From Candidatus Latescibacterota bacterium (GTDB lineage: Bacteria > Latescibacterota > UBA2968): a DNA stretch of 64,000 nt. The translations under genes and the position numbers were made by a program. Below are positions 19,101 to 45,649 of the stretch, one piece after another. The notes below the pieces were generated by a model that saw only the letters and a program-made list of their open reading frames with translations, was not told the DNA's origin and searched no databases. The stretch is from assembly GCA_965207885.1 (NCBI GenBank), contig OZ242311.1:704001-768000 (forward strand). The letters run 5' to 3'. How positions within the stretch are numbered: position 1 is the stretch's first letter; every line of letters begins with the position of its first letter.

Positions 19101-19301
19101 GTGACGCTCCAGATTTACAATGTGTTGGGTCAGGTGATTCGGACGCTGGTCGCTTCCGAGGCGCAGAATGCGGGTCGCTATCAGATTCGCTGGAACGGGA
19201 TGGATGATCGCGGTGTGCCGGTTTCGAGTGGAATTTACTTCTACCAGATTTCGGCAGACGGGAAGTTCAGTGATGTGCGGAAGCTGATGCTGCTCAAGTA
19301 A
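10197..19301 (+). CDS. Giant secreted surface protein (3034 aa): signal peptide, tandem Ig/Calx-beta-like repeats, dockerin/EF-hand-like pair, cohesin-like domain, FlgD-Ig/T9SS-type C-terminal domain
   Basis: RBS AGGAGG; signal ending DSFA|Q; T/V/A/D-rich repeats with DxD..DE.I motifs; ADVNDDGTVDVADFLEF; VDVSLANV..L.GYGF.LNY; QNFPNPFNP...IYNVLGQ.IRTL...W.G.DD.G.PVSSGIYFY...KLMLLK. Confidence 0.9.
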   Translation: MNFHKTIGFLATLLLTLGIGVPDSFAQTPTVDSVTLTITTPDPATILDTADRTLVTLSANVSLSAALAAEAEAMTVTLTLVDSTATSVKPAANRAEASDYTLSPDIFGTTIDVIVAPGSDSGTAAMTTFLIDPNTDIDDMHENLAIGAAVGDEGDAVTIQITDTDNPVESVTLTITTPDPATILDTADRTTITLSANVSMRSAVTEAMTVTLTLVDSTATSVKPANTRAEASDYTISPDIFGTTIDVILADTESEAATAVTTTFLIDPHTDTDTMHDHLAIGAGIGSVGDAVTIQITDTDNPVESVTLTITTPDPATILDTADRTAVTMTANVSMRSAVTEAMTVTLTLVDSTATSVKPAANRAEASDYTLSPDIFETTVDVILAETESEAATAVPILFFFDPNTDTDTMHDHLAIGAGIGSVGDAVTIQITDTDNPVTEVSLQITVPDADSDTATEEFDDTAPRTLVTLSANVTMRNALAADAEAMTVTLTLVDSTATSVKPAADRAVASDYTLSPDIFGTTIDVIVAPGSDSGTAVTETVFFEPNVDSDNKDETLAIGAGVGRVGDAVTIVIDDTQEETGEITSVELSPAALSVNEGETLTATVTVKVNAVAGTAQTVDVTLSVDSGDLAALGITSATVPVTIDNRKTSGMAMVPIEYMAPEDDTNTIDEMITITGMAGTVGGDDNTSTITAMDNDEAMVTSVALSPATLSVAEGVTLATTVTVTVNMDLSRDVESQQDVTLSVDSGDLAALGIASATVPVTIPADQTSGMAMVPIEYMAPEDDNSVSEMITITGMVGMVGGDANTTTITAMDNETLALASVELSLAPVAGGTLDDTAGNTAFRLTANVNMTGPAAAAADHVITLSLDDTHMSDFTLANLGITQLTVNVAAGASAGTAVTHDFLYDPQEDADATDEVIAIKGMSGGMEAVGSFTITDTDIGVAGVTLTLTRADGSTAQLSDTAGPTTLRLTANVTADEMAPAGGLDFVVDLSLADTHMSGLTLADLGITNNQLTVNVAAGMTAGTAMTKDFVFDPQEDADAADEVIAIKGMSGGMEAVGSLTIKDTGAAAAGAVASVGLSPAMLSVDEGSSLADGTMITVTVNVAAGAATSHSVDLTAMGADLMDLGLPASVMVDVMQNATSGTAMVPIEYMAAEDDDNTVSEMITITGMVGTVGGTANTVTITAVDNDMSSVTSVVLSADPEMLSAMEEGTPLSTTVTVTVLVDLAPAADATHDVVLTSMGATLAELGVTSPVSVMVNAGDKTGTAAVPVTITGVADADTDDETITLTGTYGTFTSTVTFTVVDDDKGAVSSVALSPSMLSATEGMPLATTVTVTVTVAAGSGGTYNVNLSSSLPTGSIATPVAVSVAKDATTGMAEVALNYTPPQDDNTTDEMITITGMVGTVGSDDGSNVVTITVADDDMGAVTGLMLSPATIPLTEGVAFSGMVTVTVNVEAGAASTHSVALSSSLPTGSIATPVVVSVDQGATSGMAEVALNYTPPTDADVDDEEIVITGTLGDKMATVTLNVTDNTASKGTVKVTTSMESIRENSRTRSVVVTATLPAAPGAGNTVTVNVVVTGGTADEPATITIADANTSGTATVRITPVNDAVFTTSAFTVTGGATGYKSGTAMIDIIDDDASLGTLSITSAPPSATLSGGAQDLTLTVTLWLATPDTPIPPSLVVNVATDKGTLASNTVTITNTRKHPDHDPATRRADGNAKVVLSLAAGDVSAAGNITVTASADMYETGTREIPIRARGALDIAGYRAVIVTPTGTNWANVGNDKVKVDVTRYGDVAYPWTDFESIKVSVRDTAHAAFELEQVTASGFNREDGGSVTFLEPASPSRGDVIWRGNDTIRFEIRIRGYSASRDPADNGQYLGAYAHVEFKSGQDTDAIETRDDETSVYAANPSLVDDAKVGDGRLIRIDNQVPAHSGVADIVVTSGDEVGSDIDATVGDEIRVAVALSQTNLFRETGLRIQLQIVDGSGSVNGQTLTAAQRNAPSKNKDFTTSQVIAAANDSLIHTYKVTEGFFTITLDDFVEGVGAKGSKVDLNNAQARVRAGVRDQAANFKWFGWTTFDIDSRLPSVSILYPSADPDSIYAHTHPLRFTGNVEDIEQGQNVDAHLNPLAILVDEDLSKLEVFAVGADTLNITGQMPSDAIGDSMAVYDTSDLSSPKKDGEGDDDKYPGAFVPSSANRAGTAIDLVVLATDELGNVNSAKISGVTHDASPPEITEWFPKNRLLPEDQINDETPPIFTVPEDVDSIAVTFEGSNGSDVTKQRGEAAKGEHSIDFSGALVDEVLYDMTIFARDLAGNVFITPADSSASMRFNAQFDNPVANRYNISTGTDSVIAGQANILTIQAEDHDAGSDTARNALTYKNAARISAWDASGGAAESVWFVGAGVTDDADNPDGVAMLNAADWSIGKRTVEVKSNKAVGSIKILVQHMSAGVVGFESAKEGLYVGAADFAAFEITAWEEGVEGAAEEIWGDYTLRVVPTDRHGNPSVRAFKADPAGDDADSLDVLDTRAGDNAFEYKDGIDVEIVGVPTIEDFALLILSVEKEGASYDLVAPADRRSQTVQVRVVNGSLKEGDTRSQNVRSSARFVISEPLTPVLTVWVEGMEGDQAGNDVVVPATVTVAAEGYNAGDMVTFTQNGQTVGTLRANDEGVAKAPPITVNMAGMAVVSATNGRYATDALTITFVDAPAEPARKSYADANGDPVYLIYTGDAAPDMTVGVNDFLALVAAFMSSMGDDNYNALADVNDDGTVDVADFLEFLTSWGRTAAGPATKPLVLLPGINENAEFSLSLGSERVIAGELVVVDVSLANVAALVGYGFALNYETDKFEFVSVAPADEDLLKSTGGETLFHHVVADGQVTVANGLFNGTAVSGGGDVVQFVFRVLREFEDNARFEVADGLVFDPGQLSNPAVVAGVLELQSTPREFALHQNFPNPFNPDTTIKYDLAESADVTLQIYNVLGQVIRTLVASEAQNAGRYQIRWNGMDDRGVPVSSGIYFYQISADGKFSDVRKLMLLK
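10287..11930 (+). repeat. Four tandem ~405-420 bp in-frame domain repeats
   Basis: Units start at 10287, 10698, 11103 and 11508; units 1-3 are nearly identical at DNA level. Confidence 0.9.
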
Positions 19302-26799: not shown

Positions 26800-26957
26800 T
26801 ACAACTGCGCCAGCAGTTCAATCGAGCATGACTGGTCGCAGTTCAGACCAGTTCACTGTGAAGTGTGAAGGAGGAAGTGTGAAGGGTGAAGGGTGAGACC
26901 AATTGTTGTAGGGGCGAGGCATGCGTCATCGCGGTATGATTCTGAGCCGCGATCCAG
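26800..26957 (+). repeat. Composite repeat: AACTG-hairpins, GAAGTGT-like heptamers, half GTAG-REP (26908) and GTCAT-hairpin (26925-26957)
   Basis: Module order similar to 39369-39524. Confidence 0.8.
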
Positions 26958-27937: not shown

Positions 27938-27942
27938 TGGTT

Positions 27943-28061
27943 GAAGTGTGAAGTGGGAAGTGTGAAGTGTGAAGTGTGAAGTGTGAAGTGGGAAGTGTGA
28001 AGTGGGAAGTGTGAAGTGTGAAGTGGGAAGTGGGAAGTGGGAAGTGGGAAGGATGAAGTAG
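27943..28061 (+). repeat. Tandem heptamer array GAAGTG(T/G), about 17 units, followed by a GTCAT-hairpin (28076-28108)
   Basis: Read directly from the sequence. Confidence 0.95.
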
Positions 28062-28140: not shown

Positions 28141-28425
28141 ATGGATATCGGTTTTGTATGGGACGAAAACAAATATCGAGAAGTCCAGGAGAAGCATGAA
28201 GTCCAGTTTTATGAGGCTGTTGCGGCATTTGATGATCCAAATGGATTCGAGGTTCCAGATCCAGAGGGACATGAAGACCGGTGGATGTGGATAGGAGCAA
28301 CAATCGCTGGTCGGGTATTAGCTCTGGTCTATTCAGAAGAAGATGTACCCCTCCATCGTTTAATCACCGCCTTTGATGCTACCGAGAGCTTACGTGATGA
28401 ATACTACAGCAGACGCGGAATTTGA
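28141..28425 (+). CDS. brnT: BrnT-family (DUF497) ribonuclease toxin
   Basis: FVWDENK......KH.V.F.EA...FDDP......D....EDRW..IG......LALVYSE.....RLITA. Confidence 0.82.
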   Translation: MDIGFVWDENKYREVQEKHEVQFYEAVAAFDDPNGFEVPDPEGHEDRWMWIGATIAGRVLALVYSEEDVPLHRLITAFDATESLRDEYYSRRGI

Positions 28426-29335
28426 TTATGAAACTTATATGAACGAAATCTCGTTAGATTCAGTCAAAATTCATCGTGGAACAGAGGCGCGTGAAAAACG
28501 ACGAAAGGCCGCTATGCGTGCCTTGGCCTGCTTCAATCGCGGTTCTGCTTATAGCACCATACGTGATTATGACCGTGCCATAGAAGAGTACAGCAAGGCC
28601 ATAGAATTGAAATCGAATTATGTCAATGCCTATCATAGTCGAGGCAATGCTTACATGCAAAAAGGTGCGTATGACCGTGCCATTTTGGATTTTGACAAAG
28701 TGATCGCGCTGAAACCAGATGATGCCATGACTTTTTTTAGTCGCGGCTTGGCTTATTTCATCAAAGACGAGGTTGACCTTGCCATCAAGGATCTGAATAG
28801 AGCGGTCGCACTTGACTCAGAGTTTGCTGTAGCCTATTTCATTCGAGGTAGTGCCTACTTAAAAAAAGGTGCGTATGATCTTGCTATCGCAGAGTACAAT
28901 AAGGCGATAGAATTGAATCCAGATTATACCGATGCCTATAATAATCGCGGCAATGCTTACAGCAATAAAGGCGAGGTTGACCTTGCTATCGCAGATTACA
29001 ACAAAGCGGTAGCACTTAAGCCAGAACTTGCTGTGGCCTATTTCATTCGAGGTAATGAGTACGTAACAAAAGGCATGTACGATCGGGCTACCGCAGAGTA
29101 CAATAGGGCGATAGAATTGGACCCAAAACTTGCTGTGGCCAATTTTGGTCTTGGTATATGTTCGCTACTGAGCCGGACAGATTGGCAAGTAGCCAAATCA
29201 TATTTGACACTTGCCAGGCGCGAGGGCATGGATATTATCGCAGCATTTCGCAAAAATTACGAAAATGTTGCGGCATTTGAACGAAGACATGGTGTTCGGT
29301 TGCCGAAAGATATCGCGGCTATGTTGACGCCATAG
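28397..29335 (+). CDS. TPR-repeat protein with an N-terminal ~40-aa BrnA-antitoxin-like segment
   Basis: ATG overlaps the brnT 3' end; N-term EFDY....IHRG...R.KRRK; about 6-7 TPRs (AY.NRG.AY...G.YD.AI.DY.KAIEL.P). Confidence 0.75.
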   Translation: MNTTADAEFDYETYMNEISLDSVKIHRGTEAREKRRKAAMRALACFNRGSAYSTIRDYDRAIEEYSKAIELKSNYVNAYHSRGNAYMQKGAYDRAILDFDKVIALKPDDAMTFFSRGLAYFIKDEVDLAIKDLNRAVALDSEFAVAYFIRGSAYLKKGAYDLAIAEYNKAIELNPDYTDAYNNRGNAYSNKGEVDLAIADYNKAVALKPELAVAYFIRGNEYVTKGMYDRATAEYNRAIELDPKLAVANFGLGICSLLSRTDWQVAKSYLTLARREGMDIIAAFRKNYENVAAFERRHGVRLPKDIAAMLTP

Positions 29336-29394: not shown

Positions 29395-31167
29395 GTGTTC
29401 ATCTGTGGTTGCTTTTTTGGTTTTTCTGTGGTTGCTTCTTTATCCGAGAGGGGGTCAGCTATCAATACCAATGATTCTGATCGTCAGAGAAAGTCACCTG
29501 AAGATTTTCTTCAGGACTATGTGGATATGCAGCATACGTTTCAGTCGCTGTCGATTATCGATCAAATTTTGATGACGATGGATGAGACGGATCGACGGCG
29601 GCCCCTGTTGTACCAGTTGCGCCGGCAGCTTCAGGAAGATGAGATTACGTTTGAGGATGCGAGGCGCACGATTGTGGAGCTGGAAGGGGCGCTGGAGAAG
29701 GTGACGGCGCCGGCAAATCGGGTTGGTACGTTGCTGTCGCCGCCGGAAAATGGCATCGCGTACATTACGGTGGGGGGGGCGGAGTATTACGCCAATGTGG
29801 ATTCCCGGTTGGATGAGCGACGTTTGAAGGTGGGGACGCGGGTGCTGGTGAATGAGGCGTTTGCCGTGGTGGGCGATATGGGCGAGTCTCCGTCGGGTAC
29901 GGTGGGTAAAATTGTCGATGTGCTGGACGATGGGCGTTTGCAGGTGGGGCAAGAACACGGTTCGCAGACGCATGTTTTGCTGCGGGGGGCCGATCTGGAG
30001 GCCGAGGCTTTGAAGGCGGGCGAAGAGGTGCGGATCGATCCGCATTTTCGCGTGGCGCTGGAGAAGATGCCTCATTCCGAGGTTAAGGATTTTTATCTGG
30101 AGGAAGTTCCGGATTTGCCGTGGGAGAAGATCGGTGGGCAAAAGGATGCGATTCAGGCGATTAAGGATACGATTGAGATGCCGGTGTTGCACCCAGAGTT
30201 GTTTAAGCGGTTTCAGTACAGTACGCCCAAGGGGTTTTTGTTGTACGGTCCGCCGGGGTGCGGCAAGACGCTGATTGGGAAGGCGACGGCGTACAATCTG
30301 GAGAAGCAGGTGCAGGAAGACGGTTTGAATCTCAAGGCGTGTTTTATGCATATTAAGGGTCCTGAGATTTTGAATATGTGGTTGGGAGAGTCCGAGCGCA
30401 AGGTGCGCGAGATTTTTTCTCAGGCGCGCGAGAAGCGGCGCGAGGGGTTTTTGCCGGTGGTGTTTATCGACGAGGCAGAGTCGGTGTTAGGGACGCGGCG
30501 GGCGATTCGGTCGCACAATATTTCAAATACGGTTGTGCCGATGTTCTGCTCCGAGATGGACGGGATCGATTCCCTGCAAGATGTGGTGATTATTTTGACG
30601 TCCAATCGTCCAGATTTGATCGATCCGGCAATTTTGCGCCCGGGGCGTATTGATCGCAAGATCAAGGTGCTGCGTCCGGATGAGGATGCCGCGCGCGAGA
30701 TTCTGGGTATTTATTTGACGGCCAATTTGCCGCTGTCAGAGGATGCGTTAAACGCGCACGATGGCGATGTACGGGCAGCGGTTGACGATCTTGTGGCGCG
30801 CACGATAGCAGAGATATATGCCAGGCGCGATGATACGCGCTTTTTAGAGGTGTTGCTCAGAAGCGGTCGCAAGGAGGTGTTGAGCCGCGGAGATCTGTGT
30901 AGCGGGGCTATTCTCGAGTCTATTGTGCAGCGCGCGAAGGAGATTGCGATTAAGCGGTGTATTGCGTCGGGCGCAGAAGATGGGATTGGTTTTGACGATT
31001 TGCTCGTGGGAATAGAGACCGAGTACAGCGAGAATGAGATTTTCCCGCCGACGGATAATACAGAGGATTGGTTGAAGTTGCTGGATTACGATCCGGAAAA
31101 TGTGGTGCGCGCAGTACCGATTCGCCCCAGGCGAGAGCGACGCATCTCAAGGCATGGCGTGGTTTGA
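29395..31167 (+). CDS. arc: Proteasome-associated AAA+ ATPase ARC/Mpa; true start probably downstream of the repeat-derived 29395 GTG
   Basis: N-terminal coiled coil and OB region, GPPGCGKT, HIKGPEILNMWLGESERKVREIF, FIDEAE, SNRPDLIDPAILRPGRIDRKI. Confidence 0.92.
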   Translation: MFICGCFFGFSVVASLSERGSAINTNDSDRQRKSPEDFLQDYVDMQHTFQSLSIIDQILMTMDETDRRRPLLYQLRRQLQEDEITFEDARRTIVELEGALEKVTAPANRVGTLLSPPENGIAYITVGGAEYYANVDSRLDERRLKVGTRVLVNEAFAVVGDMGESPSGTVGKIVDVLDDGRLQVGQEHGSQTHVLLRGADLEAEALKAGEEVRIDPHFRVALEKMPHSEVKDFYLEEVPDLPWEKIGGQKDAIQAIKDTIEMPVLHPELFKRFQYSTPKGFLLYGPPGCGKTLIGKATAYNLEKQVQEDGLNLKACFMHIKGPEILNMWLGESERKVREIFSQAREKRREGFLPVVFIDEAESVLGTRRAIRSHNISNTVVPMFCSEMDGIDSLQDVVIILTSNRPDLIDPAILRPGRIDRKIKVLRPDEDAAREILGIYLTANLPLSEDALNAHDGDVRAAVDDLVARTIAEIYARRDDTRFLEVLLRSGRKEVLSRGDLCSGAILESIVQRAKEIAIKRCIASGAEDGIGFDDLLVGIETEYSENEIFPPTDNTEDWLKLLDYDPENVVRAVPIRPRRERRISRHGVV

Positions 31168-31257
31168 AGTGAGAAGTGAGAAGTGTGAAGTGAGAAGTGT
31201 GAACAACTGTAGGGGCGAGGCATGCGTCATTGCGGCGTGTTGTTAGCCGCAATCCAG
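31165..31257 (+). repeat. Heptamer run, half GTAG-REP (31209) and GTCAT-hairpin (31226-31257)
   Basis: Read directly from the sequence. Confidence 0.85.
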
Positions 31258-31290
31258 AAGGTTTTGTCATTACTGGCGTTGTGAGATAAT

Positions 31291-32814
31291 ATGACGCGTT
31301 TATTCGGTATAGAAACGGAATATGGGATCACGATTGACGAGGTGGATAAGGTCGATGTGGTCGAAGAGTCGATGCAGTTGATTCGATGCTATCAGCAAGG
31401 GGCTTTTGTTCCGTTGTGGGATTATCGGCTGGAGAATCCCCGGCGGGATGAGCGGGGGTTTGAGGTCAAAAATCTGTTGAATGATGCCGATGAAAAGGTG
31501 CATTTGCAACAGGACCGCAAGCGCAAGATTCCGTTTAAAGAATTGAAGAGCGATTTGATTATTTACAATGGTTCCCGGTTTTACAACGATCACACGCATC
31601 CGGAGTATTCAACGGGTGAGTGCACGAGTTTGTTCGAGCTTGTGGCGCAGGATAAGGCGGGGGAGCGCATTGTGGATATTTGCGCGCAGCGGCGCACGGA
31701 GATGCTCGATCAGGGCGTTGTGCGGATGTATAAGAATAATACGGATTTCGAAGGGCACAGCTATGGATGTCACGAGAATTATTTGATGGATCGCTCGGTG
31801 CCTTTCGAGCGTATATTAGAGGGGTTGTTGCTGTTTTTTCCCACGCGGCAGATTTTTTGTGGGGCTGGGAAGGTGGGTGTTGAGCGGGAGGATCGCGCGC
31901 CGATTTATCAGTTGTCGCAACGCGCGGAGTTTTTTGAGGTGATCGCGAGTGTGGATACGATGCACAAGCGTCCGGTTGTGAATACGCGCGATGAACCCCA
32001 CGCAGATGCGGCGCAATATCGCCGGTTGCACGTGATTGTGGGCGATGCCAATATGTCGGAGTATATGACGGCGCTCAAGGTGGGGTCAACGGCGCTGGTG
32101 ATCGATTTGATTGAGGCGGATTGTTTGCCCGATTATCGGCTGAAGGATCCGATTGCGGCGATGAAGAATATCGCCCGGGATCAGTCGCATGCGTGGCTGG
32201 TAGAGGTCGAGGGCCCCGGCCATCGCCTCGTTCCTGCGGTTGAAATTCAGGATGCGTTTTTGACTCTGGCACGACGCGAGTTTGCCGGGCGGGATCGAGA
32301 GACGGATTGGGTGTTGTCTGCGTGGGAAGATGTGATAGAGAAGTTGAGCCGCGATCCAATGGATCTGGTGGGGGTGTGCGATTGGGTGACGAAGAAGTGG
32401 CTGATCGATAGTTTTTGCGAGGCGGAGAATCTGGCGTGGGATAATCCCGATGATTTGTTCTGGATGCAGAGTCAGGATCTGGAATATAGCAATGTGGATC
32501 GGGATGCGGGGTTGTATTATTTGCTGGAGTCGCAGGGGCAGATGGTGCGTCTGGTGGGCGATGATGAGGTGGCAGCGGCAATGTCGGAACCGCCTTCGGG
32601 TACGCGGGCGTATTTTCGAGGACGCAGTTTGGAGAAGTTCGGCGATTATGTGTCGTCGATTAACTGGGATCGCATTGTGTTTAAACGCAATGGTCGCCAG
32701 CATGCGGTGGATATGAAATTATTGGTGGATGAAGAGCGGGTGCAGCGTTATAATGAGGTACTCGATAGTTCGGAGACGTTGGAGAGTTTTTTAGAGGCGT
32801 TGGAGAAAGTGTGA
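31291..32814 (+). CDS. dop: Dop-like depupylase/deamidase
   Basis: GIETEYG, Dop-loop WDY..ENPRRDERGF, NDHTHPEYST, GHSYGCHENY, NTRDEPHAD, RRLHVIVGDANMSE. Confidence 0.9.
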   Translation: MTRLFGIETEYGITIDEVDKVDVVEESMQLIRCYQQGAFVPLWDYRLENPRRDERGFEVKNLLNDADEKVHLQQDRKRKIPFKELKSDLIIYNGSRFYNDHTHPEYSTGECTSLFELVAQDKAGERIVDICAQRRTEMLDQGVVRMYKNNTDFEGHSYGCHENYLMDRSVPFERILEGLLLFFPTRQIFCGAGKVGVEREDRAPIYQLSQRAEFFEVIASVDTMHKRPVVNTRDEPHADAAQYRRLHVIVGDANMSEYMTALKVGSTALVIDLIEADCLPDYRLKDPIAAMKNIARDQSHAWLVEVEGPGHRLVPAVEIQDAFLTLARREFAGRDRETDWVLSAWEDVIEKLSRDPMDLVGVCDWVTKKWLIDSFCEAENLAWDNPDDLFWMQSQDLEYSNVDRDAGLYYLLESQGQMVRLVGDDEVAAAMSEPPSGTRAYFRGRSLEKFGDYVSSINWDRIVFKRNGRQHAVDMKLLVDEERVQRYNEVLDSSETLESFLEALEKV

Positions 32815-32925
32815 AGTAGGAAGTGTGAAGTGTGAGGGGTGATTGTCATCGCGGCAGGGTGTAAGCCGCGATCCAGAAGATTTTGCCTTTTACTCTGTGT
32901 TCATCGGTGTTCATCGGTGGTTGCT
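32808..32925 (+). repeat. Heptamers, GTCAT-hairpin (32845-32876) and TTCATCGGTG units
   Basis: Read directly from the sequence. Confidence 0.8.
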
Positions 32926-32947
32926 TTTTTCATTAAGGAGGCCGTAG

Positions 32948-33139
32948 ATGGATAAGGTCTTACAGTTTGAACGACGGACGAAGCCGGTCGATCCGGGAGG
33001 ACCTGGTCCGGGTGATGATGGCGATGGTGGCCCCGCGCGCCCGAAGGTGGAGCGGCCAGACACACGCGATTTGCTGCGGCGCATGCGGCGCGTTGATCCC
33101 AATCAGGCGCGGCGCTATCGCCAGCGTACAGGCGAGTAG
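32948..33139 (+). CDS. ubact: UBact, ubiquitin-like (Pup-analogous) modifier
   Basis: 63 aa, Gly/Pro-rich disordered N-half, LLRRMRRVDP.QARRYRQRTGE C-terminus (R[T/S]G[E/Q]); RBS AAGGAGG; sits between dop and prcB. Confidence 0.92.
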   Translation: MDKVLQFERRTKPVDPGGPGPGDDGDGGPARPKVERPDTRDLLRRMRRVDPNQARRYRQRTGE

Positions 33140-33142
33140 CTT

Positions 33143-33946
33143 ATGCAATCGGGTGGGGATTTTGTCGATTTGTTGCGGCAATCGGGCTACCGGTTTCCGG
33201 GTGAGAATTTGGGCGATGTACAGGCCGAGCGCGCGTTGCCTTTTGAGCCTACGGATGCGACGACGATTCTGGCATTTCAATATGCCGATGGGGTGCTCGT
33301 TGCAGGCGATCGCCGCGCCACTGCGGGCAATATGGTGCTTTACGACCGCGCGGATAAGGTGATCGATCTGGATGCGTTTTCGGTGATGGCGATTTCAGGG
33401 TCGCCTTCGATTGCGTTTGAGATTGCGCGTATTCTGGAGCATGCGTTTCAGTATTATCGCCGCCGTTTGCTTCAGGAGATGAGTTTGCAGGCGAAGTTGC
33501 GCCGGTTGTCGCTGTTGATCAAGGATAATTTGCCGATGGCGATGCAGGGTATTGGCGCTGTGATTCCCATTTTTGCGACGTATGACCGGGTGGATGCGCG
33601 GGGTAAAATTTATTTTTACGATGCGCTGGGGGCGCAGTTCGAGAGTGCGGATTTTACGACGACGGGGTCGGGGTCGCCGGCGATTCGCGGGGCGATGTAT
33701 TATTTGAATCGCTGGGGCGGTCGGCGGTTTGTGGATATGGATCGCGATGCGGCTATCGGGCACGCGCTCCAGCTTCTGGATACGGCGTCGGAATACGATT
33801 CGGCGACGGGTCGATACGAGCGGTCGGCTGATATTTTTCCGTCGGTGAAGACGATTACGGCGTCGGGTTTGGAAGAGATCGAGACCGAGGCGTTGCGACA
33901 GCTCTATGTTCAATATGTGGATGGGGAGGAGGCGGGACGCGCATGA
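33143..33946 (+). CDS. prcB: 20S proteasome beta subunit (Ntn Thr protease with propeptide)
   Basis: Propeptide|TTILAFQY.DGVLVAGDRRATAGN...DKV, GSGS, D..TG. Confidence 0.92.
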   Translation: MQSGGDFVDLLRQSGYRFPGENLGDVQAERALPFEPTDATTILAFQYADGVLVAGDRRATAGNMVLYDRADKVIDLDAFSVMAISGSPSIAFEIARILEHAFQYYRRRLLQEMSLQAKLRRLSLLIKDNLPMAMQGIGAVIPIFATYDRVDARGKIYFYDALGAQFESADFTTTGSGSPAIRGAMYYLNRWGGRRFVDMDRDAAIGHALQLLDTASEYDSATGRYERSADIFPSVKTITASGLEEIETEALRQLYVQYVDGEEAGRA

Positions 33947-34740
33947 TGTTGTCTGATGAGCCGTATCGCTGGGCAGAGGCTGTTGCGAATCGGCGCGATT
34001 ATATTGAAGATCAGATCCGGACGGGGAGTCCGGTCGTGGGTGTGGGTTACGAGGGCGGTGTTTTGTTGTTGACGCTGTCGCAGAGTCAGCAGAAGGTGTT
34101 TGAGGTGTACGATCGCCTCTTGCTCGCGGGGATTGGGCATTCGACGGATATCGAGAATCTGCGGCAGGCTGCGATTGATATGGCGCATTCGATTGGGTTT
34201 AATTATTCAGAAGACGATGTGACACTGCGCCAGATTGTGTATTTTGGTCTCGGTCCTGCGATTAAGGCGGGGTTTGACGATGTGGTGCGGTCTCCTTTTT
34301 TGGCGCGGGTGCTTCTCGCGGAGTTAGATGGGCAGGAGGGCGCGCATATTTTTTATTCTGTGGATTACGATGGCGCGTTTCACCGGCACGAGAAATGGGC
34401 TGCTGTGGGGGGCGTTGTGGAGGCGGATGTGATGATGGTGCGCGAGTTGTCGGGTTTGGATACGGAGGCGTTGTCACTATCTGATGCCGCAGGTGCCGCG
34501 CTTCGCGCATGGGCAATGGGGCGATGGATTGGGAAGATGGATGAGGTGCCCACCGATGCCGACGCGTTGGATCAGGTGGTCGGGGAGGTCGATGTGGCTG
34601 ATGTGCTTGGGACGGAGTTGAAGGATCTGGAGGTGGAGGCGGTGGTGCTCGAGCGGTCGCGGGTAGGTAAAAACAAGTACCGCAATGTCGATGCAGAAGA
34701 AATTGCGCCCGCGCTGGCGCAGTTCATTGAGAATGCGTAA
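33943..34740 (+). CDS. prcA: 20S proteasome alpha subunit
   Basis: EPYRWAEAV.NRRDYI...I..GSPVV, KVFEVYDRL..AGIG...DIE.LR. Confidence 0.9.
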   Translation: MMLSDEPYRWAEAVANRRDYIEDQIRTGSPVVGVGYEGGVLLLTLSQSQQKVFEVYDRLLLAGIGHSTDIENLRQAAIDMAHSIGFNYSEDDVTLRQIVYFGLGPAIKAGFDDVVRSPFLARVLLAELDGQEGAHIFYSVDYDGAFHRHEKWAAVGGVVEADVMMVRELSGLDTEALSLSDAAGAALRAWAMGRWIGKMDEVPTDADALDQVVGEVDVADVLGTELKDLEVEAVVLERSRVGKNKYRNVDAEEIAPALAQFIENA

Positions 34741-34769
34741 GAAGCGGTCAACGGTCGGCAATTAGAGCC

Positions 34770-34801
34770 GTCATTGCGGCATGCTTAAAGCCGCAATCCA
34801 G
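34770..34801 (+). repeat. GTCAT-hairpin element
   Basis: GTCATTGCGGCATGCTTAAAGCCGCAATCCAG. Confidence 0.85.
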
Positions 34802-34848
34802 TGGGTGGTGGAAGGGAAGGGCTGAAAGCTGAAAATTGAGGGGTCCCA

Positions 34849-36309
34849 ATGAGAGATCGCATTTTTGGCATAGAAACCGAGTATGGGTGTTTGGCTCCCG
34901 AGCACGAGGGTTTTGTGAGTCCCGATACCATTTCGGTGAAGGTTAAGGATCACATTTTTCACGTTGACCGTATCGGGATTGTGGATATTCACTATCGCGG
35001 ACGGGATGAACCCCCGGGCAATGGGGGTTTTTTGTTTAATGCCGGGCGGGTTTATATCGATATGGGGCATCTGGAATACGCGACGCCGGAGTGTATGGGG
35101 TTGTGGGATATTGTGGCTTTTGATCGGGCTGGCGATCTCATTTTGCACCGGGCATTGCACGCGCTGGGGTTGGCTAAAGAAGCGGCGTTTTTGAAGAATA
35201 ATATCGATCACTATACGGGCGCGACGTTTGGCTGTCACGAAAATTATCTGGTCAGGCGCAATGTGCCTTTTTCAACGGTTGTCATTCCCGCGCTGTTGCC
35301 GTTTTTGGTGACGCGCCAGATTTTTTGCGGTGCAGGTCGCGTGGGCAGTTATGACGACAGTTTTTATTATTATGGGCACAATGCGCGCGATGTGACCAAC
35401 CGGGAAGATCCGGTGGATTTCCAGATTTCTCAGCGTGCGGATCATATTGTGACTGAGATTTATCAGTGGATTCAGTTTTCTCGCGCGATTATCAATACGC
35501 GAGATGAACCGCTGGCCGATCACAGCAAGTACCGCCGTTTGCACCTTCTGGTGGGCGATTCAAATATGTCGGAGTATGCGACGGCACTGAAGGTTGGCAC
35601 GACTGCGATGGTGCTGAATCTTCTGGAGCGGAAGATTTTTCCGGGGGATGTGGTGGAGTTGGGCGATCCGGTGTGGGCACTGAAGGAGATTTCGCGCGAT
35701 CCAACACATAAGTGGATTCTGGACCGGCAGAATGGGCGGTCTATTTCGGCTATTGATATACAGCGCGTTTATCTGGATTTGTCGCAGCGCTATTTGAGGG
35801 GTCTGGATGAGGAGTCGGATTGGGTGCTGGATGAGTGGGAGCGCACGCTGGATGATCTGGAGTCCGATCCGATGCAGTTGACAGATCGTCTGGACTGGGT
35901 GGCGAAGAAGTGGTTGTTGGATGCGTTTCGCGAGTCGGAGAATTTGAGCTGGGACGATCCGTGGTTGCAGAGTTTGGATCTGGAGTATCACAATATCGAT
36001 CCCAATCGCGGGTTGTATTTCGATCTGGAGCAACAGGGTAAGATGAAGCGCGTGTTGACCGATGATCGCGTTGAAGAGGCTTGTGGGACGCCTCCGGCTG
36101 ATACGCGGGCAAAGGCGCGGGCGGCAATGGTGAAGACGTTGTCGCAAAATCGGGTGCGGTATATTGTGGATTGGGATTCGGTGTATTTGGAAAATGATTA
36201 CCATTTGAGTTTTCGCGATCCGTTTGATACGTATGACGAGGCGGTAGAGGCGTTTGCCGAGGAGGTCGAGATCGCGTCGAAGATGATGGGGTTGAGAAGG
36301 GGGAAGTAG
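34849..36309 (+). CDS. pafA: PafA-like Pup/UBact-protein ligase
   Basis: RIFGIETEYG, FLFNAGRVYIDMGHLEYATPEC, FGCHENY, RAIINTRDEPLAD, RRLHLLVGDSNMSE, DLEYH. Confidence 0.9.
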   Translation: MRDRIFGIETEYGCLAPEHEGFVSPDTISVKVKDHIFHVDRIGIVDIHYRGRDEPPGNGGFLFNAGRVYIDMGHLEYATPECMGLWDIVAFDRAGDLILHRALHALGLAKEAAFLKNNIDHYTGATFGCHENYLVRRNVPFSTVVIPALLPFLVTRQIFCGAGRVGSYDDSFYYYGHNARDVTNREDPVDFQISQRADHIVTEIYQWIQFSRAIINTRDEPLADHSKYRRLHLLVGDSNMSEYATALKVGTTAMVLNLLERKIFPGDVVELGDPVWALKEISRDPTHKWILDRQNGRSISAIDIQRVYLDLSQRYLRGLDEESDWVLDEWERTLDDLESDPMQLTDRLDWVAKKWLLDAFRESENLSWDDPWLQSLDLEYHNIDPNRGLYFDLEQQGKMKRVLTDDRVEEACGTPPADTRAKARAAMVKTLSQNRVRYIVDWDSVYLENDYHLSFRDPFDTYDEAVEAFAEEVEIASKMMGLRRGK

Positions 36310-36422
36310 GAAGGGTGAAGGAGGAAGTAGGAAGTGAGAAGTAGGAAGTGAGAAGGGGGAAGTAGGAAGGGTGAAGTGGGAAGGATGTAGGGGCGACCCC
36401 CTGTGGTCGCCCGTTTTTTTTT
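36294..36422 (+). repeat. Degenerate heptamer array and GTAG-REP hairpin with T-tract (probable terminator of the proteasome operon)
   Basis: GAAG(T/G)NN run, then GTAGGGGCGACCCCCTGTGGTCGCCCG-T9. Confidence 0.75.
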
Positions 36423-36424
36423 GC

Positions 36425-36655
36425 TTATCTCTTTCCCAAAACTACAACTTCTTCGTCTTTTTTCATTCGTTCTATGACTATGAACATTTCCAATGCTGTT
36501 TGGCATTCATTAGGGTCTTCAAATGTGACAGACGACCTTATAACTTCGGTCTGTGAAAAAAAGTCTTTTCCTGCCCATACATATTTGTGGGGCCCTTGAT
36601 TTGTGTAGTCTTCTAAAGACGACTCTTCATCATCAATAACGTAAAATTGTATCAT
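36425..36655 (-). CDS. Small low-GC hypothetical protein (weak YegP/DUF1508 resemblance)
   Basis: RBS AGGAGAGAAGGA before MIQFYV; KYVW.......EVIRSS..F.....C...L pattern. Confidence 0.45.
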   Translation of the reverse strand: MIQFYVIDDEESSLEDYTNQGPHKYVWAGKDFFSQTEVIRSSVTFEDPNECQTALEMFIVIERMKKDEEVVVLGKR

Positions 36656-36761
36656 TCCTTCTCTCCTATTTTTGCGCATGGGCATGAGTGAGCCTATCGG
36701 CATGGTATAGATTTCCCTTTGCAAAGTCAACCTATATTTGACAAAACACCAGGAGGATTGC

Positions 36762-36892: not shown

Positions 36893-37438
36893 TTAGCCCC
36901 GCCTGCTTCTTCCGCCGCGTCGTCCAGAGTAGTGGCGAGAGCTCATGGGCAGGTACGCGCGGGCGATTTTTTGACTGGCGCGGTCGAGTTTGGTATAGTC
37001 GGGGATTTTGTAGCGTTTGCGCGTTATGGCGTCGGTGAATACGATTTCGGGAAATGCGTTGAGGTTGAGGTTCTGATCGCCGCGGATTGTGAAGCGCATA
37101 GGTCCCGCGTCGGTGTTGATGTCCCAGGTTGTGCCGCCTTCTTTGTTGCTTTCGATGTTGAGTATGGTCTGGATTTTGGGGATGTCATAGCGGTTTTTGA
37201 GGTGTTCTTCAACGCGTGTCCGGGATTGTGGGTTTAATCCGTCGAGTGTGGGCAACAGGCCCAGTTCGGTTCCGTCCCGGTCGCGGAGGCTGATCCATTG
37301 GTCGGGCGTGGAAAAGGGGAAGCAGCGCGCGATGTGATCGATGTGTAGTTCTTCTCCGTCGGCACAGAGGATCAGGCTGTCGCCGTTTTGACGTATGTCA
37401 ATGGTTTCGGGGATGAGTTGTTGTATCATGATATCCAT
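36893..37438 (-). CDS. DUF1854-domain protein
   Basis: RCFPFSTPDQWISL.D.DG.ELG...L..RY.IP.I..I.......W...TD.G...F; downstream of an ABC exporter. Confidence 0.75.
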   Translation of the reverse strand: MDIMIQQLIPETIDIRQNGDSLILCADGEELHIDHIARCFPFSTPDQWISLRDRDGTELGLLPTLDGLNPQSRTRVEEHLKNRYDIPKIQTILNIESNKEGGTTWDINTDAGPMRFTIRGDQNLNLNAFPEIVFTDAITRKRYKIPDYTKLDRASQKIARAYLPMSSRHYSGRRGGRSRRG

Positions 37439-37582: not shown

Positions 37583-39367
37583 TTACGCTTCTTCCAACGC
37601 GAATTGCATGTCGCACAGGCGGGCGTAGAGGCCGTCGCTGGCGAGTAGCTGGGTGTGTGTGCCGTATTCGACGATTTTGCCGCGGTCGATGACGTAGAGG
37701 CAGTCGGCGCGGCGCACGGTGGATAGGCGATGGGCGATCGCAAAGGTGGTGCGGCCTTCCATGAGGCGTTCGAGTGCTTTTTGGATGAGCATTTCGGTTT
37801 CGGTGTCAACAGAAGATGTGGCTTCGTCCAGGATGAGGATGCGCGGGTTGTTGAGGATGGCGCGGGCTATGGATATGCGCTGTTTTTCGCCGCCGGATAA
37901 GCGCACGCCCCGTTCGCCTATGTGGGTGTCATAAGCGTCCGGGAATCCGCAGACGAAGTCGTGGGCGTTGGCCATCATGGCGGCGTTGATGATGTCGGTT
38001 TCGGTGGCGTTGAGTTTGCCATAAGCGATGTTTTCGCGGATGGTTCCGTTGAAGAGGAAGGGTTCTTGTAAGACCATGCCGATTTGGCTGCGCAAAGATG
38101 CGCGTTGCATGTTTTTGAGGTCATGACCGTCAACGCATACGGTGCCAGAGTCGGGGTCGTAGAATCGGCAGATGAGGTTGATGATGGTGGTTTTGCCCGC
38201 GCCGCTGGGCCCGACGAGGCCGATGAGTTGCCCGGGTTGTGCGATGAGGGATACGCCCTGGAGGACGGGGGGTCCGTGTTCGTAGGCAAAGGTGACGTTT
38301 TGAAATTCAACGCGGCCGTTCAGGCGGTCAAAGGGGAGGGCGTTGGGGGTGTCTTTTATTTCGGGCTGGGTGTCCAGGATTTCAAAGATGCGACGCGCTG
38401 AGGCGGCTGCGCGCACGATGGTGTCGTTGATGCGGGTAAGGCTTTCTACGGGTCCGTAGAAGCGCCAGAGAAAGCTTTGAAAGGCGAAGAGGGTGCCGAT
38501 GGTGAGGTCGCCCGAGATGATTTGTCGCCCGCCAAAGAGGAGGACGAGGAGGGGTCCCATGGAGATGATGAATCGGGCGAGGGGAAAGAAGGCGACGCGG
38601 GTTTTGATGATGGTGATGCTGATGGTGAGGAAGGCTTTGCATTTTTGGGTGAAGCGAGAGAGTTCGTGGCCTTCGCGGGCAAAGCATTTGATGACGCGGA
38701 TGCCGGAGAGGTTGTCTTGCAAGAGGGCGCTGATGTCGGCTATGCGTTCGCGCGCCATGGTGTAATAGGGGCGTATGGTGCGGTTGTAGAAGATGATGAG
38801 GATGCTGTATAGGGGCATGGGCAACAGGGTGATGAGGGCGAGTTCAAAGCTGAGGCCAAAGAGGATGCTGCCGTAGATGACGATGGTTGCGATATTGACG
38901 AGTACGCGTTCCAGGGTGTCTGTGACGGTGTATTGGAGGGATTCGACGTCGGCGGTTACGCGCGACATGAGTTCGCCCGTGCTGCGGTCGTTGTAGAAGC
39001 GCAGGCCCAGGTGCTGGAGGTGGTCATAGACCTGGACGCGGAGGCTGAAGAGGATGTCCTGGCCCGTTCGGTTGAGGAGGTAGCGGTTGATGAAGCTGAA
39101 GATGGTGTGGAGGATATAGACGCCGAGGAGGAGCAGGGCGTAGTATTGGAGGAGGTCGAAGTCGGTTGCGATTTTTGTGTCGGAGAAGTCGTCGCCAATA
39201 TAATTCCCTTCTGTGAAGTAGGGGGTTAAGATGTTGTCGATGACTTCGCGCATGAGCAGGGGTTGCGCGGCATCCAGGCCGATCATGACGAGGGTGGCGC
39301 CGATGCCGATGCTCACGCGGCCCAGGTAAGGGCGAACATAGGTGACGAGGCGGAGGAAGACGTTCAT
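37583..39367 (-). CDS. ABC exporter, fused permease/ATPase (MsbA/MdlB-like)
   Basis: TMD followed by GPSGAGKT, LSGGEKQR, ILDEATSSVD, AHRLST; true start MNVFLRL. Confidence 0.93.
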   Translation of the reverse strand: MNVFLRLVTYVRPYLGRVSIGIGATLVMIGLDAAQPLLMREVIDNILTPYFTEGNYIGDDFSDTKIATDFDLLQYYALLLLGVYILHTIFSFINRYLLNRTGQDILFSLRVQVYDHLQHLGLRFYNDRSTGELMSRVTADVESLQYTVTDTLERVLVNIATIVIYGSILFGLSFELALITLLPMPLYSILIIFYNRTIRPYYTMARERIADISALLQDNLSGIRVIKCFAREGHELSRFTQKCKAFLTISITIIKTRVAFFPLARFIISMGPLLVLLFGGRQIISGDLTIGTLFAFQSFLWRFYGPVESLTRINDTIVRAAASARRIFEILDTQPEIKDTPNALPFDRLNGRVEFQNVTFAYEHGPPVLQGVSLIAQPGQLIGLVGPSGAGKTTIINLICRFYDPDSGTVCVDGHDLKNMQRASLRSQIGMVLQEPFLFNGTIRENIAYGKLNATETDIINAAMMANAHDFVCGFPDAYDTHIGERGVRLSGGEKQRISIARAILNNPRILILDEATSSVDTETEMLIQKALERLMEGRTTFAIAHRLSTVRRADCLYVIDRGKIVEYGTHTQLLASDGLYARLCDMQFALEEA

Positions 39368-39368
39368 G

Positions 39369-39524
39369 GGAAGTGTGAAGTGTGAAGGTTGAAGTGTGAA
39401 ACGGTTTACAACTGGTCGTTTCTCAGACCAGTTCACGTTGAAGGTTGAAGGTTGAAGTGTGAAGGTTGAAGTGTGTAGGGGCGAGGCATGCGTCATCGCG
39501 GTATGGTTTTTAGCCGCGATCCAG
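39369..39524 (+). repeat. Heptamers, AACTG-hairpin, half GTAG-REP (39475) and GTCAT-hairpin (39492-39524)
   Basis: Read directly from the sequence. Confidence 0.85.
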
Positions 39525-39536
39525 AGGTTTTGTTTG

Positions 39537-40160
39537 TTACGCGTTGATAATCTGATCGGTGGATACAATTTCAACGCCCTGTTGCTGCCATTCATCTACC
39601 AGGCGGTCCCCGCGTTCGGGGTTGATGGCTTGTGCGGCGTCCAGGACGAGCTGTATGGGCGCTGTGTTGCGGTTTAAGAAGCCGTTGATGGCGTAGGCGT
39701 TGCATACGTCGAGGGCTACGCCATAGAGGACGATGCGGTCGGGTTTGATGGCGTTGAGTACAGGTTCGACGTTGGGGTTGGTGAAGACATCGAAACGCTG
39801 TTTGCGAAAGATGATTTCACCGCGGTGTTTTTGTACCCGGCTGATGAGGTCGCCCGGGGCGTCCGGGTCGATCCAGAGGGGATTTTGCGGTTGGGTTTCG
39901 GGTACTTTTTTTTGTCCTTCTGTGCCGGCGATGCAGTGGGGCGGAAAGGTTTCCAGGAAGTCCGGGTTGTCTGAGATTTCAGGGTCGTCTATCTGGTGGT
40001 TGTCAACCGAGCCGTAGATGGGGATGTCCCGTTGTCTGGCATGGTCTGTGAGTTTTTTGAGGTTCGGCAAGCGCTTTTCCGATGCGGTGACGTAGAGTTT
40101 GCCGTCGGGCATGATGAAGTCGTATTGGGTATCGACATCCCAGAATATGACGCCGGGCAT
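39537..40160 (-). CDS. Isochorismatase/nicotinamidase-family cysteine hydrolase
   Basis: DVDTQYDF, D.H, FPPHC, RKQRFDVF, GVALDVC. Confidence 0.85.
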   Translation of the reverse strand: MPGVIFWDVDTQYDFIMPDGKLYVTASEKRLPNLKKLTDHARQRDIPIYGSVDNHQIDDPEISDNPDFLETFPPHCIAGTEGQKKVPETQPQNPLWIDPDAPGDLISRVQKHRGEIIFRKQRFDVFTNPNVEPVLNAIKPDRIVLYGVALDVCNAYAINGFLNRNTAPIQLVLDAAQAINPERGDRLVDEWQQQGVEIVSTDQIINA

Positions 40161-45573: not shown

Positions 45574-45649
45574 AAGTGTGAAGGAGGAAGTGTGAAGGAG
45601 GAAGGGGGAGGGTGGCTTTCTAACTTCTACCTTCTCACTTCACACTTCA
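45573..45649. repeat. Inverted pair of heptamer runs between convergent genes
   Basis: GAAGTGTGAAG... on the left, ...CTTCTCACTTCACACTTC on the right. Confidence 0.7.

Follow-up and report, generated by a model that had tools for sequence, protein, structure and literature searches.

Whether a bacterium outside the Actinobacteria tags its proteins with a small modifier and degrades them in a proteasome, as the actinobacterial Pup-proteasome system does, is the question raised by a six-gene operon in the genome of a sponge-associated Candidatus Latescibacterota bacterium (assembly GCA_965207885.1, contig OZ242311.1). We analyzed the 64,000 nucleotides from position 704,001 to 768,000 of this contig (hereafter the window, whose own numbering is used throughout), in which six co-directional open reading frames (ORFs) on the + strand at 29395-36309 correspond to arc, dop-like, ubact, prcB, prcA and pafA-like, with the putative modifier UBact in the place of Pup. 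Judged by its sequence, the operon is genuine and intact, and it is probably active; we put at roughly 80% the probability that it is a working UBact-proteasome operon operating like the actinobacterial Pup-proteasome system. Its genes are the following.

29461..31167, + strand: ARC/Mpa-type proteasomal AAA ATPase (Pfam AAA and two proteasomal-ATPase OB domains)
31291..32814, + strand: Dop-type deconjugase, 507 amino acids (aa), by family (PF03136, 506.8 bits; Dop-loop; catalytic Asp100-His101)
32948..33139, + strand: ubact, 63-aa tag ending RRYRQRTGE (PF20513 and NF033388 matches)
33143..33946, + strand: 20S proteasome beta subunit PrcB, 267 aa (PF00227, 88.4 bits)
33943..34740, + strand: 20S proteasome alpha subunit PrcA, 265 aa (PF00227, 36.3 bits)
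34849..36309, + strand: loop-less Pup_ligase paralogue (PafA side), presumed UBact ligase, 486 aa (PF03136, 481.6 bits)

All six ORFs were located where the initial annotation had placed them, in the order of the actinobacterial loci, and their family matches agree with the set that it had named. The prcB gene starts 4 nt 3' of the ubact stop, and prcA overlaps prcB by 4 nt. The operon contains the sole UBact gene, the sole two Pup_ligase genes and the sole two proteasome-family genes of its genome; no HslV-like gene was found in the host genome, where the PF00227 matches are the two 20S genes only. Shared with the actinobacterial system are the six components, their order, their folds and a Dop with its loop, as well as a C-terminal Glu or Gln as the presumed attachment point of the tag.

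In the mechanism that we infer, UBact, which is 63 aa long and largely disordered, would be made already Glu-ended. The loop-less enzyme on the PafA side, presumably the ligase, would use ATP to activate this Glu and join it to lysines of target proteins, and the Dop-type enzyme would remove the tag again. Finally, ARC would recognize and unfold the tagged proteins and pass them to the 20S core of PrcA and PrcB. The mechanism suggested in the initial annotation, with PafA as ligase and Dop as deconjugase, is sensible by analogy. A general point against this reading is that the system is known here from genes, models and RNA-library contigs, not from a conjugate, an activity or a protein; more specific points concern the enzyme presumed to be the ligase and the docking of ARC, and are weighed below.

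The UBact tag

The identification of the 63-aa modifier ending RTGE as UBact was borne out, with scores above the curated cut-offs of both PF20513 (70.4 bits, cut-off 27.8) and NF033388 (80.2 bits, cut-off 35). The C-terminal half of the tag, RPDTRDLLRRMRRVDPNQARRYRQRTGE, is basic (10 Arg vs 4 Asp/Glu in residues 36-63) and nearly invariant in the family, the consensus of a 47-homologue alignment being R-P-D-T-x-D-L-L-R-R-M-R-R-V-D-P-N-Q-A-R-R-Y-R-Q-R-T-G-[EQ]. UBact has no detectable sequence similarity to Pup and ends TGE/TGQ, whereas Pup ends GGE/GGQ. None of the 47 UBact sequences matched Pfam Pup at E ≤10 (other than UBact, just a sub-threshold DUF3563 was returned), and there was no Pup chain in a UBact profile search of PDB structures. 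The best match of that search, the DNA-binding protein 4nb5_A with ...RYSQRTGE near its end (E 0.68), was taken as chance.

Two states of the last residue are found in the family. The 120 homologues listed end in RTGE (96), RTGQ (22), RSGE (1) or otherwise (1), and the tags of 76 loci in RTGE (48), RTGQ (27) or RSGE (1). Because Glu outnumbers Gln in both sets (97 vs 22 and 49 vs 27, respectively), the Glu end in the window represents the commoner of two normal states. According to excerpts of a review (PMC8223512), deamidation by Dop is required only by Gln-ending Pup; by analogy with Glu-ending Pup, the earlier suggestion that the terminal Glu of UBact makes a deamidation step unnecessary is supported as an inference.

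Codon comparison with 17 near alleles of the genus gave 194 synonymous and 28 non-synonymous differences in ubact, each allele being compared pairwise with the window, such that the differences are not independent; 14 more distant alleles were excluded as the comparison was ungapped. By this measure, and with its Shine-Dalgarno sequence and its closeness to prcB, the ubact ORF is a real gene under purifying selection. Nor is it easily missed by gene callers, as had been supposed: a search of a predicted-protein collection returned 257 UBact homologues at E ≤0.001, some of which carry the NCBI name 'ubiquitin-like protein UBact [Candidatus Latescibacteria bacterium]', already in use.

As a side observation, a genome of the same class (locus L038, G038:C69:7179-7576) has a pair of neighboring UBact-like matches (80.6 and 53.9 bits), possibly a tandem duplication of the tag gene.

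Distribution, expression and relation to known systems

The host genome is a single contig of 6.23 Mb (completeness 97%). Its closest public relatives are Candidatus Latescibacterota metagenome-assembled genomes, with a Dop-like protein 97% identical, and near-identical DNA was found in sponge metagenome runs. Among 168 Latescibacterota species genomes, UBact was detected in 128 and Pup_ligase in 131, the latter nearly always in two copies. Both were present throughout four families of the phylum (f1 30/30, f2 22/22, f3 3/3 and f9 2/2) and in most members of a fifth (f4; UBact 70/76, Pup_ligase 73/76), and in none of the remaining families represented among these genomes. The operon is thus ordinary for the phylum and standard in one large class of Latescibacterota.

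Related loci were titled Latescibacterota, Gemmatimonadota, Handelsmanbacteria, Planctomycetota, Armatimonadota, Verrucomicrobiota and Methylacidiphilum, and the full six-gene order was kept in 70 of these 79. Six of the nine incomplete loci are cut by contig ends, and the other three (L021, L051 and L090) are without genes despite the DNA being present. Two related loci (L049 and L066) have approximately 2 kb inserted between dop and ubact.

In four metatranscriptome runs, taken from three sponge and coral studies, contigs map to 24-29 of the operon's 30 bins; one of them (X17 record 20) lies on 32964-33501 and leads from ubact into prcB. Such cover was absent or nearly so in the bins 29000-29256 and 36453-36700, which is uninformative on transcript ends. 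The operon is therefore present in RNA libraries; since such libraries may contain DNA, however, these contigs cannot prove transcription, which tempers the case for an active system.

Another reading is that the operon was acquired horizontally and is now a silent or decaying relic. Movement of the pathway from one phylum to another has been proposed (in the available part of PMC7947786), and all five actinobacterial equivalog models (NCBIfam) score under their cut-offs on the operon proteins. Nonetheless, the open frames, the intact catalytic residues, the purifying selection, the near-universal occurrence in four families of the phylum and the presence in RNA libraries make such a relic very improbable, and an intact operon that is probably in use is the better account.

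The UBact loci of Gram-negative phyla were reportedly defined by Lehmann, Udasin, Livneh and Ciechanover in 2017, and the phyla in that original description are said not to have included Latescibacterota. Compared with the known UBact loci that PF20513 and NF033388 describe, the locus in the window is the same in its tag above the cut-offs, its R-T-G-E end and its order arc-dop-ubact-prcB-prcA-pafA, and we found no difference of substance. Novelty, which the initial annotation had implied, does not apply to the operon: because NCBI already names UBact in Latescibacteria and the operon is ordinary in the phylum, it is of a known kind rather than a discovery. Loci of this kind were first predicted, as 'Pup orthologs' outside the Actinobacteria, by Iyer, Burroughs and Aravind in 2008 (PMC2588565). 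As far as the accessible portions of that study and of PMC3511204 go, the loci described there in Methylacidiphilum and Nitrospirae likewise place small G[EQ]-ended tags beside a pair of PafA paralogues and three proteasome genes, and are otherwise the same kind of locus, with the tag called Pup. The Methylacidiphilum locus in our set (L093) has the same six genes.

The locus by itself changes nothing, as it adds an intact example to a system that is already described and annotated in databases. The family matters more, as a widespread bacterial ubiquitin-like pathway on which a literature search turned up no experimental work. Our comparisons yield inexpensive hypotheses for it, namely a candidate for the ligase, grooves whose complementary charge predicts that the system is orthogonal to Pup and PafA, and a conserved aliphatic ARC tail as a candidate docking element.

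The host had been described as diderm, and its single-contig genome supports this with nine Omp85 and 14 TolC-type OEP matches. LpxC, LpxB and LptD were not found in this genome (97% complete). Based on these gene contents, an outer membrane is likely and classical lipid A synthesis is doubtful; the cell may have an outer membrane without classical lipid A.

The Dop-like and PafA-like enzymes

The upstream paralogue was correctly named as Dop. It aligns over its full length with Acidothermus Dop (4b0r; 386 bits, vs 253 bits for PafA), including the Dop-loop, where the WDYRLENPRRDERGFEV region aligns with 4b0r. Its score against the Dop model TIGR03688 (450.1 bits) is under the cut-off of 492.3 bits and 105 bits above its own PafA score (344 bits). 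A catalytic Asp followed by His was found in 15/15 operon Dop-like enzymes (D100-H101 in the window) and in 21/22 true Dop rows. The AlphaFold 2 (AF2) model of the Dop-like enzyme (predicted local distance difference test, pLDDT, 91.3) has Dop as its nearest Foldseek neighbors (TMt 0.91-0.93, vs 0.76-0.79 for PafA).

The downstream paralogue is less easily assigned. Both operon enzymes keep the N-terminal G-h-E-x-E, the catalytic Asp (D100 in the Dop-like and D71 in the PafA-like enzyme) and the NTRDEP Arg. The PafA-like enzyme is without the Dop-loop: in an alignment, its N-terminal 60 residues span the N-terminal 89 of its Dop-like neighbor, and alignments with Dop skip the loop. We compared residues at the positions that convert Dop to a ligase, as given in Table 1 of Hecht et al. 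2020 (PMC7947786, consulted in part), for 22 NCBIfam-grade Dop, eight NCBIfam-grade PafA and 15 operon pairs. At these positions, the operon PafA-like enzymes have PafA-type Phe at 7 (15/15), His at 25 (11/15), Ser at 33 (10/15), Asp at 46 (13/15) and Ala at 13 (8/15), while Pro at 15 (12/15) is not of PafA type and the alpha-loop positions 26-32 are of neither type. The Dop-specific His after the catalytic Asp is missing from them. In NCBIfam, the PafA-like enzyme scores higher against PafA (TIGR03686, 378.2 bits) than against Dop (366.0 bits), both under the cut-off.

Several observations on this enzyme weigh against its being an ordinary PafA, and with it against a division of labor as in Actinobacteria. 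Its 378.2 bits are far from the TIGR03686 cut-off of 551.3 bits, and among solved structures Dop (292 bits) is preferred to PafA (265 bits). In the operon PafA-like enzymes, the catalytic Asp is not followed by the one-residue insertion, and the alpha-loop has the Thr-Thr pair in 0/15 cases, with I/V-Q in its place, although the pair is conserved and functionally important in PafA and Dop alike, according to the same article (PMC7947786). The loop of the operon PafA-like enzymes, H-I-V-T-E-I-Y-Q-W-I-Q-F-S-R, with Y205, Q206 and W207 conserved, belongs to neither the PafA nor the Dop type, such that the ligase-side enzyme of the UBact system, unlike actinobacterial PafA, has an alpha-loop of its own. 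In the AF2 model (pLDDT 87.8), the alpha-loop (197-216) has no alpha-helix of at least four residues, a weak indication given a pLDDT of 72-75 there; its secondary-structure pattern is the same in the Dop-like model, and in Foldseek the PafA-like model stands about equally close to Dop structures (TMt 0.84-0.86) and PafA structures (0.78-0.80). With the same loop pattern in both models and a tie in Foldseek, we discarded the AF2 models as a discriminator between ligase and hydrolase.

In the label 'PafA' of the initial annotation, then, the part that stands is the PafA-side residues and the missing Dop-loop; the NCBIfam scores under the cut-off, the preference for Dop structures and the alpha-loop do not fit it. 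The label is firmer than the evidence allows, and the sequences rather describe a relative on the PafA side with its own active-site loop.

Phylogenetic analysis further complicated the assignment. For the family scan and the trees, 41 of 150 representatives were left out for having <430 or >620 residues. Three out of five trees pair the PafA-like enzyme with its Dop-like neighbor and not with PafA, again at odds with an actinobacterial division of roles (IQ-TREE quick, 62 rows, support 98; quick, 139 rows, 97; careful LG+C20, 38 rows, 94/96). FastTree with 139 rows placed the operon Dop-like enzymes with bona fide Dop (98). An approximately unbiased (AU) test did not reject the orthology tree (difference in log-likelihood 11.7, P = 0.106). 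Moreover, in a careful tree built on the 371 of 717 columns left after removal of the Dop-loop and the tag contacts, the Dop-like enzymes joined true Dop and the PafA-like enzymes fell on the PafA side (96/90). Because the topology flips once these columns are dropped, we read the grouping of the paralogues as parallel co-evolution with the tag, in which a single ancient duplication came first and both grooves were later re-tuned in parallel. An independent duplication of the operon paralogues was considered and rejected on the same AU result and the same reduced tree. Dop/PafA trees in general call for caution, as they depend on whether tag-contact columns are kept.

An alternative is that the roles are not split as in Actinobacteria and that ligation does not fall, or does not fall solely, to the loop-less paralogue; the Dop-like enzyme or a bifunctional one may ligate, with the second paralogue as a specialized deconjugase or regulator. 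The slightly higher scores against Dop structures, the unique alpha-loop without Thr-Thr, modelled as non-helical, and the pairing of neighbors in three of the trees would fit such an arrangement. Moreover, the accessible text of Hecht et al. (PMC7947786) names alpha-loop conformation as the prime factor separating ligase from hydrolase and mentions a mixed-conformation variant capable of both reactions. We nonetheless consider this arrangement unlikely, given the PafA-type Phe, His, Ser and Asp in most or all of the 15 loop-less enzymes, the missing Dop-specific His and Dop-loop, the position of the gene where pafA stands, and an orthology that the AU test does not reject and that is regained without the tag-contact columns. 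We therefore retain the loop-less PafA-side enzyme as the presumed ligase.

Predicted tag binding and groove charge

When the PafA-like enzyme was modelled in complex with UBact, the score was 0.82, vs 0.01 for the best of three controls; 116 of 157 solved complexes reach this mark, as do 2 of 215 mismatched pairs. At least 66% of contacts are common to the runs, the pLDDT of the UBact partner is 51, and in the model UBact residues 38-60 lie along enzyme residues 356-398 and the active-site sheet. The model supports binding of UBact to the PafA-like enzyme; since a PafA-Pup complex is already solved (4bjr), its pass may partly reflect likeness.

The charge of the tag-binding groove points in the same direction. 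Over 18 groove contact columns, the net charge is -3.2 in the operon PafA-like enzymes (n = 15) and -2.9 in the Dop-like enzymes (n = 15), vs +2.4 in NCBIfam-grade PafA (n = 8) and +2.1 in NCBIfam-grade Dop (n = 22). The binding helices of Pup are acidic. The UBact system combines a basic tail with acidic grooves, whereas the grooves of the actinobacterial enzymes are basic, and the predicted acidic groove of both operon enzymes matches the basic UBact tail.

A bolder idea, which we hold tentatively, at slightly under even odds, is that UBact and Pup share an ancestor and now form separate, mutually orthogonal tagging systems. In the UBact line the tail would have turned basic while the charge of both grooves inverted in parallel, strongly enough for these columns to determine the tree topology; the ligase-side enzyme would work with a loop without Thr-Thr, and ARC would dock without HbYX/GQYL (see below). 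If true, PafA should refuse UBact and the UBact ligase should refuse Pup, the presence of both systems in one genome would be explained, and the UBact pair could serve as a second, independent proximity-labelling pair. A second, divergent Pup-type system has been noted in Leptospirillum, in the section of PMC3511204 available.

ARC unfoldase and 20S core

The ARC protein scores 472 bits against TIGR03689, under the cut-off of 504.75 bits, and has two OB domains and the AAA module; its nearest solved relatives are Mpa structures (5kwa and 7px9, approximately 350 bits). PrcB has a 39-aa propeptide, and its T40 aligns to residue 1 of the mature Rhodococcus beta subunit 1q5q_H and is Thr1; counted from T40, Asp17 is D56 and Lys33 is K72. 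Scores of the 20S subunits against the equivalog models are 171 bits for TIGR03690 (cut-off 191.9) and 79 bits for TIGR03691 (cut-off 139).

The C-terminus of ARC differs from that of Mpa. The window protein ends ...RHGVV, and 75 of the 76 ARC tails of homologues end in two aliphatic residues, [V/A/I][V/I], vs GQYL, which excerpts of PMC8223512 give as the docking motif of Mpa and Bpa. A penultimate aromatic residue is found in 0/76 tails, hence there is no GQYL motif, a further point that counts against operation in the actinobacterial manner. One may accordingly imagine that tagging is uncoupled from the proteasome, with UBact mainly regulatory, ARC not docking for want of GQYL/HbYX, and the 20S core acting alone or with another activator. 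The occurrence of the six genes together and in order at 70 of 79 loci over several phyla, the conservation of the ARC tail itself and the preserved Mpa architecture of two OB domains with an AAA module argue against this, and we regard it as marginally less likely still than a different split of the enzyme roles. In the coupled system that we favor, ARC would dock to the 20S core, and the conserved aliphatic tail suggests a different but selected docking tail.

Operon boundaries, repeats and neighboring genes

The 5' end of the operon had been set at 29395, which is indeed the first GTG of an open frame. Comparison with relatives places the likely ARC start further in: a conserved ARC N-terminal peptide, I-N-T-N-D-S-D-R..., precedes the first ATG, and in three relatives an in-frame TGA lies directly before this peptide, within a GGAGGTGA-like ribosome-binding site. 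For these reasons, ARC probably starts at a non-canonical codon, ATC 29461. More broadly, the region 29395-29530 seems to hold a non-canonical ATC or ATT start. Features other than the genes are as follows.

29395-31167, + strand: mechanical ARC ORF (590 codons; 29395 is the first GTG in frame)
31166..31203, + strand: heptamer tandem repeat (GAAGTGA-like, 5.4 copies) in the arc-dop spacer (Tandem Repeats Finder)
32805..32839, + strand: heptamer tandem repeat over the last 10 nt of dop into the dop-ubact spacer (Tandem Repeats Finder)
32936..32942, + strand: ubact Shine-Dalgarno AAGGAGG, 5 nt 5' of the ATG (direct sequence reading)
36294..36385, + strand: heptamer/14-mer tandem repeats over the last 16 nt of pafA-like and beyond (Tandem Repeats Finder)
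36391..36422, + strand: terminator-like hairpin of eight pairs (seven G-C), then the T-rich tail GTTTTTTTTT (consensus scan)

The hairpin at 36391..36422 is likely the 3' end of the operon. Terminator-like sites in the consensus scan were not clearly above chance (14, vs 9.0 ± 2.8 in shuffles), and only this strong hairpin is noteworthy among them; promoter-like sites were not above chance (10, vs 7.3 ± 2.6 in shuffles). There were no inverted repeats of at least 10 bases in the five operon spacers.

A regular-expression scan of the window found eight heptamer arrays on the + strand and none on the - strand, regardless of the direction of neighboring genes; the GC skew of the whole window is strongly positive. 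The arrays are (T)GAAGTG-like, of up to 17 copies, and sit within or bordering gaps between ORFs. Further arrays of G-rich heptamers are located at 26858-26896, 27942-28060, 39369-39479 and 45579-45613. Contigs from relatives diverge or falsely join at such arrays, and at 31166..31203 contigs from both relatives and metatranscriptomes diverge.

Upstream of the operon, a 94-aa ORF at 28141-28425 (+ strand) has a 62-bit match to BrnT, a family of ribonuclease toxins in type II toxin-antitoxin systems, and overlaps the listed start of the next ORF, a 320-aa TPR-repeat protein at 28373-29335. Further upstream lies a 3034-codon open frame at 10197-19301 (+ strand). Downstream, a DUF1854 protein at 36893-37438 (- strand) adjoins an ABC exporter with transmembrane and ATPase domains at 37583-39595 (- strand), the true start of which is probably further in, because the listed frame enters a heptamer repeat at its 5' end.

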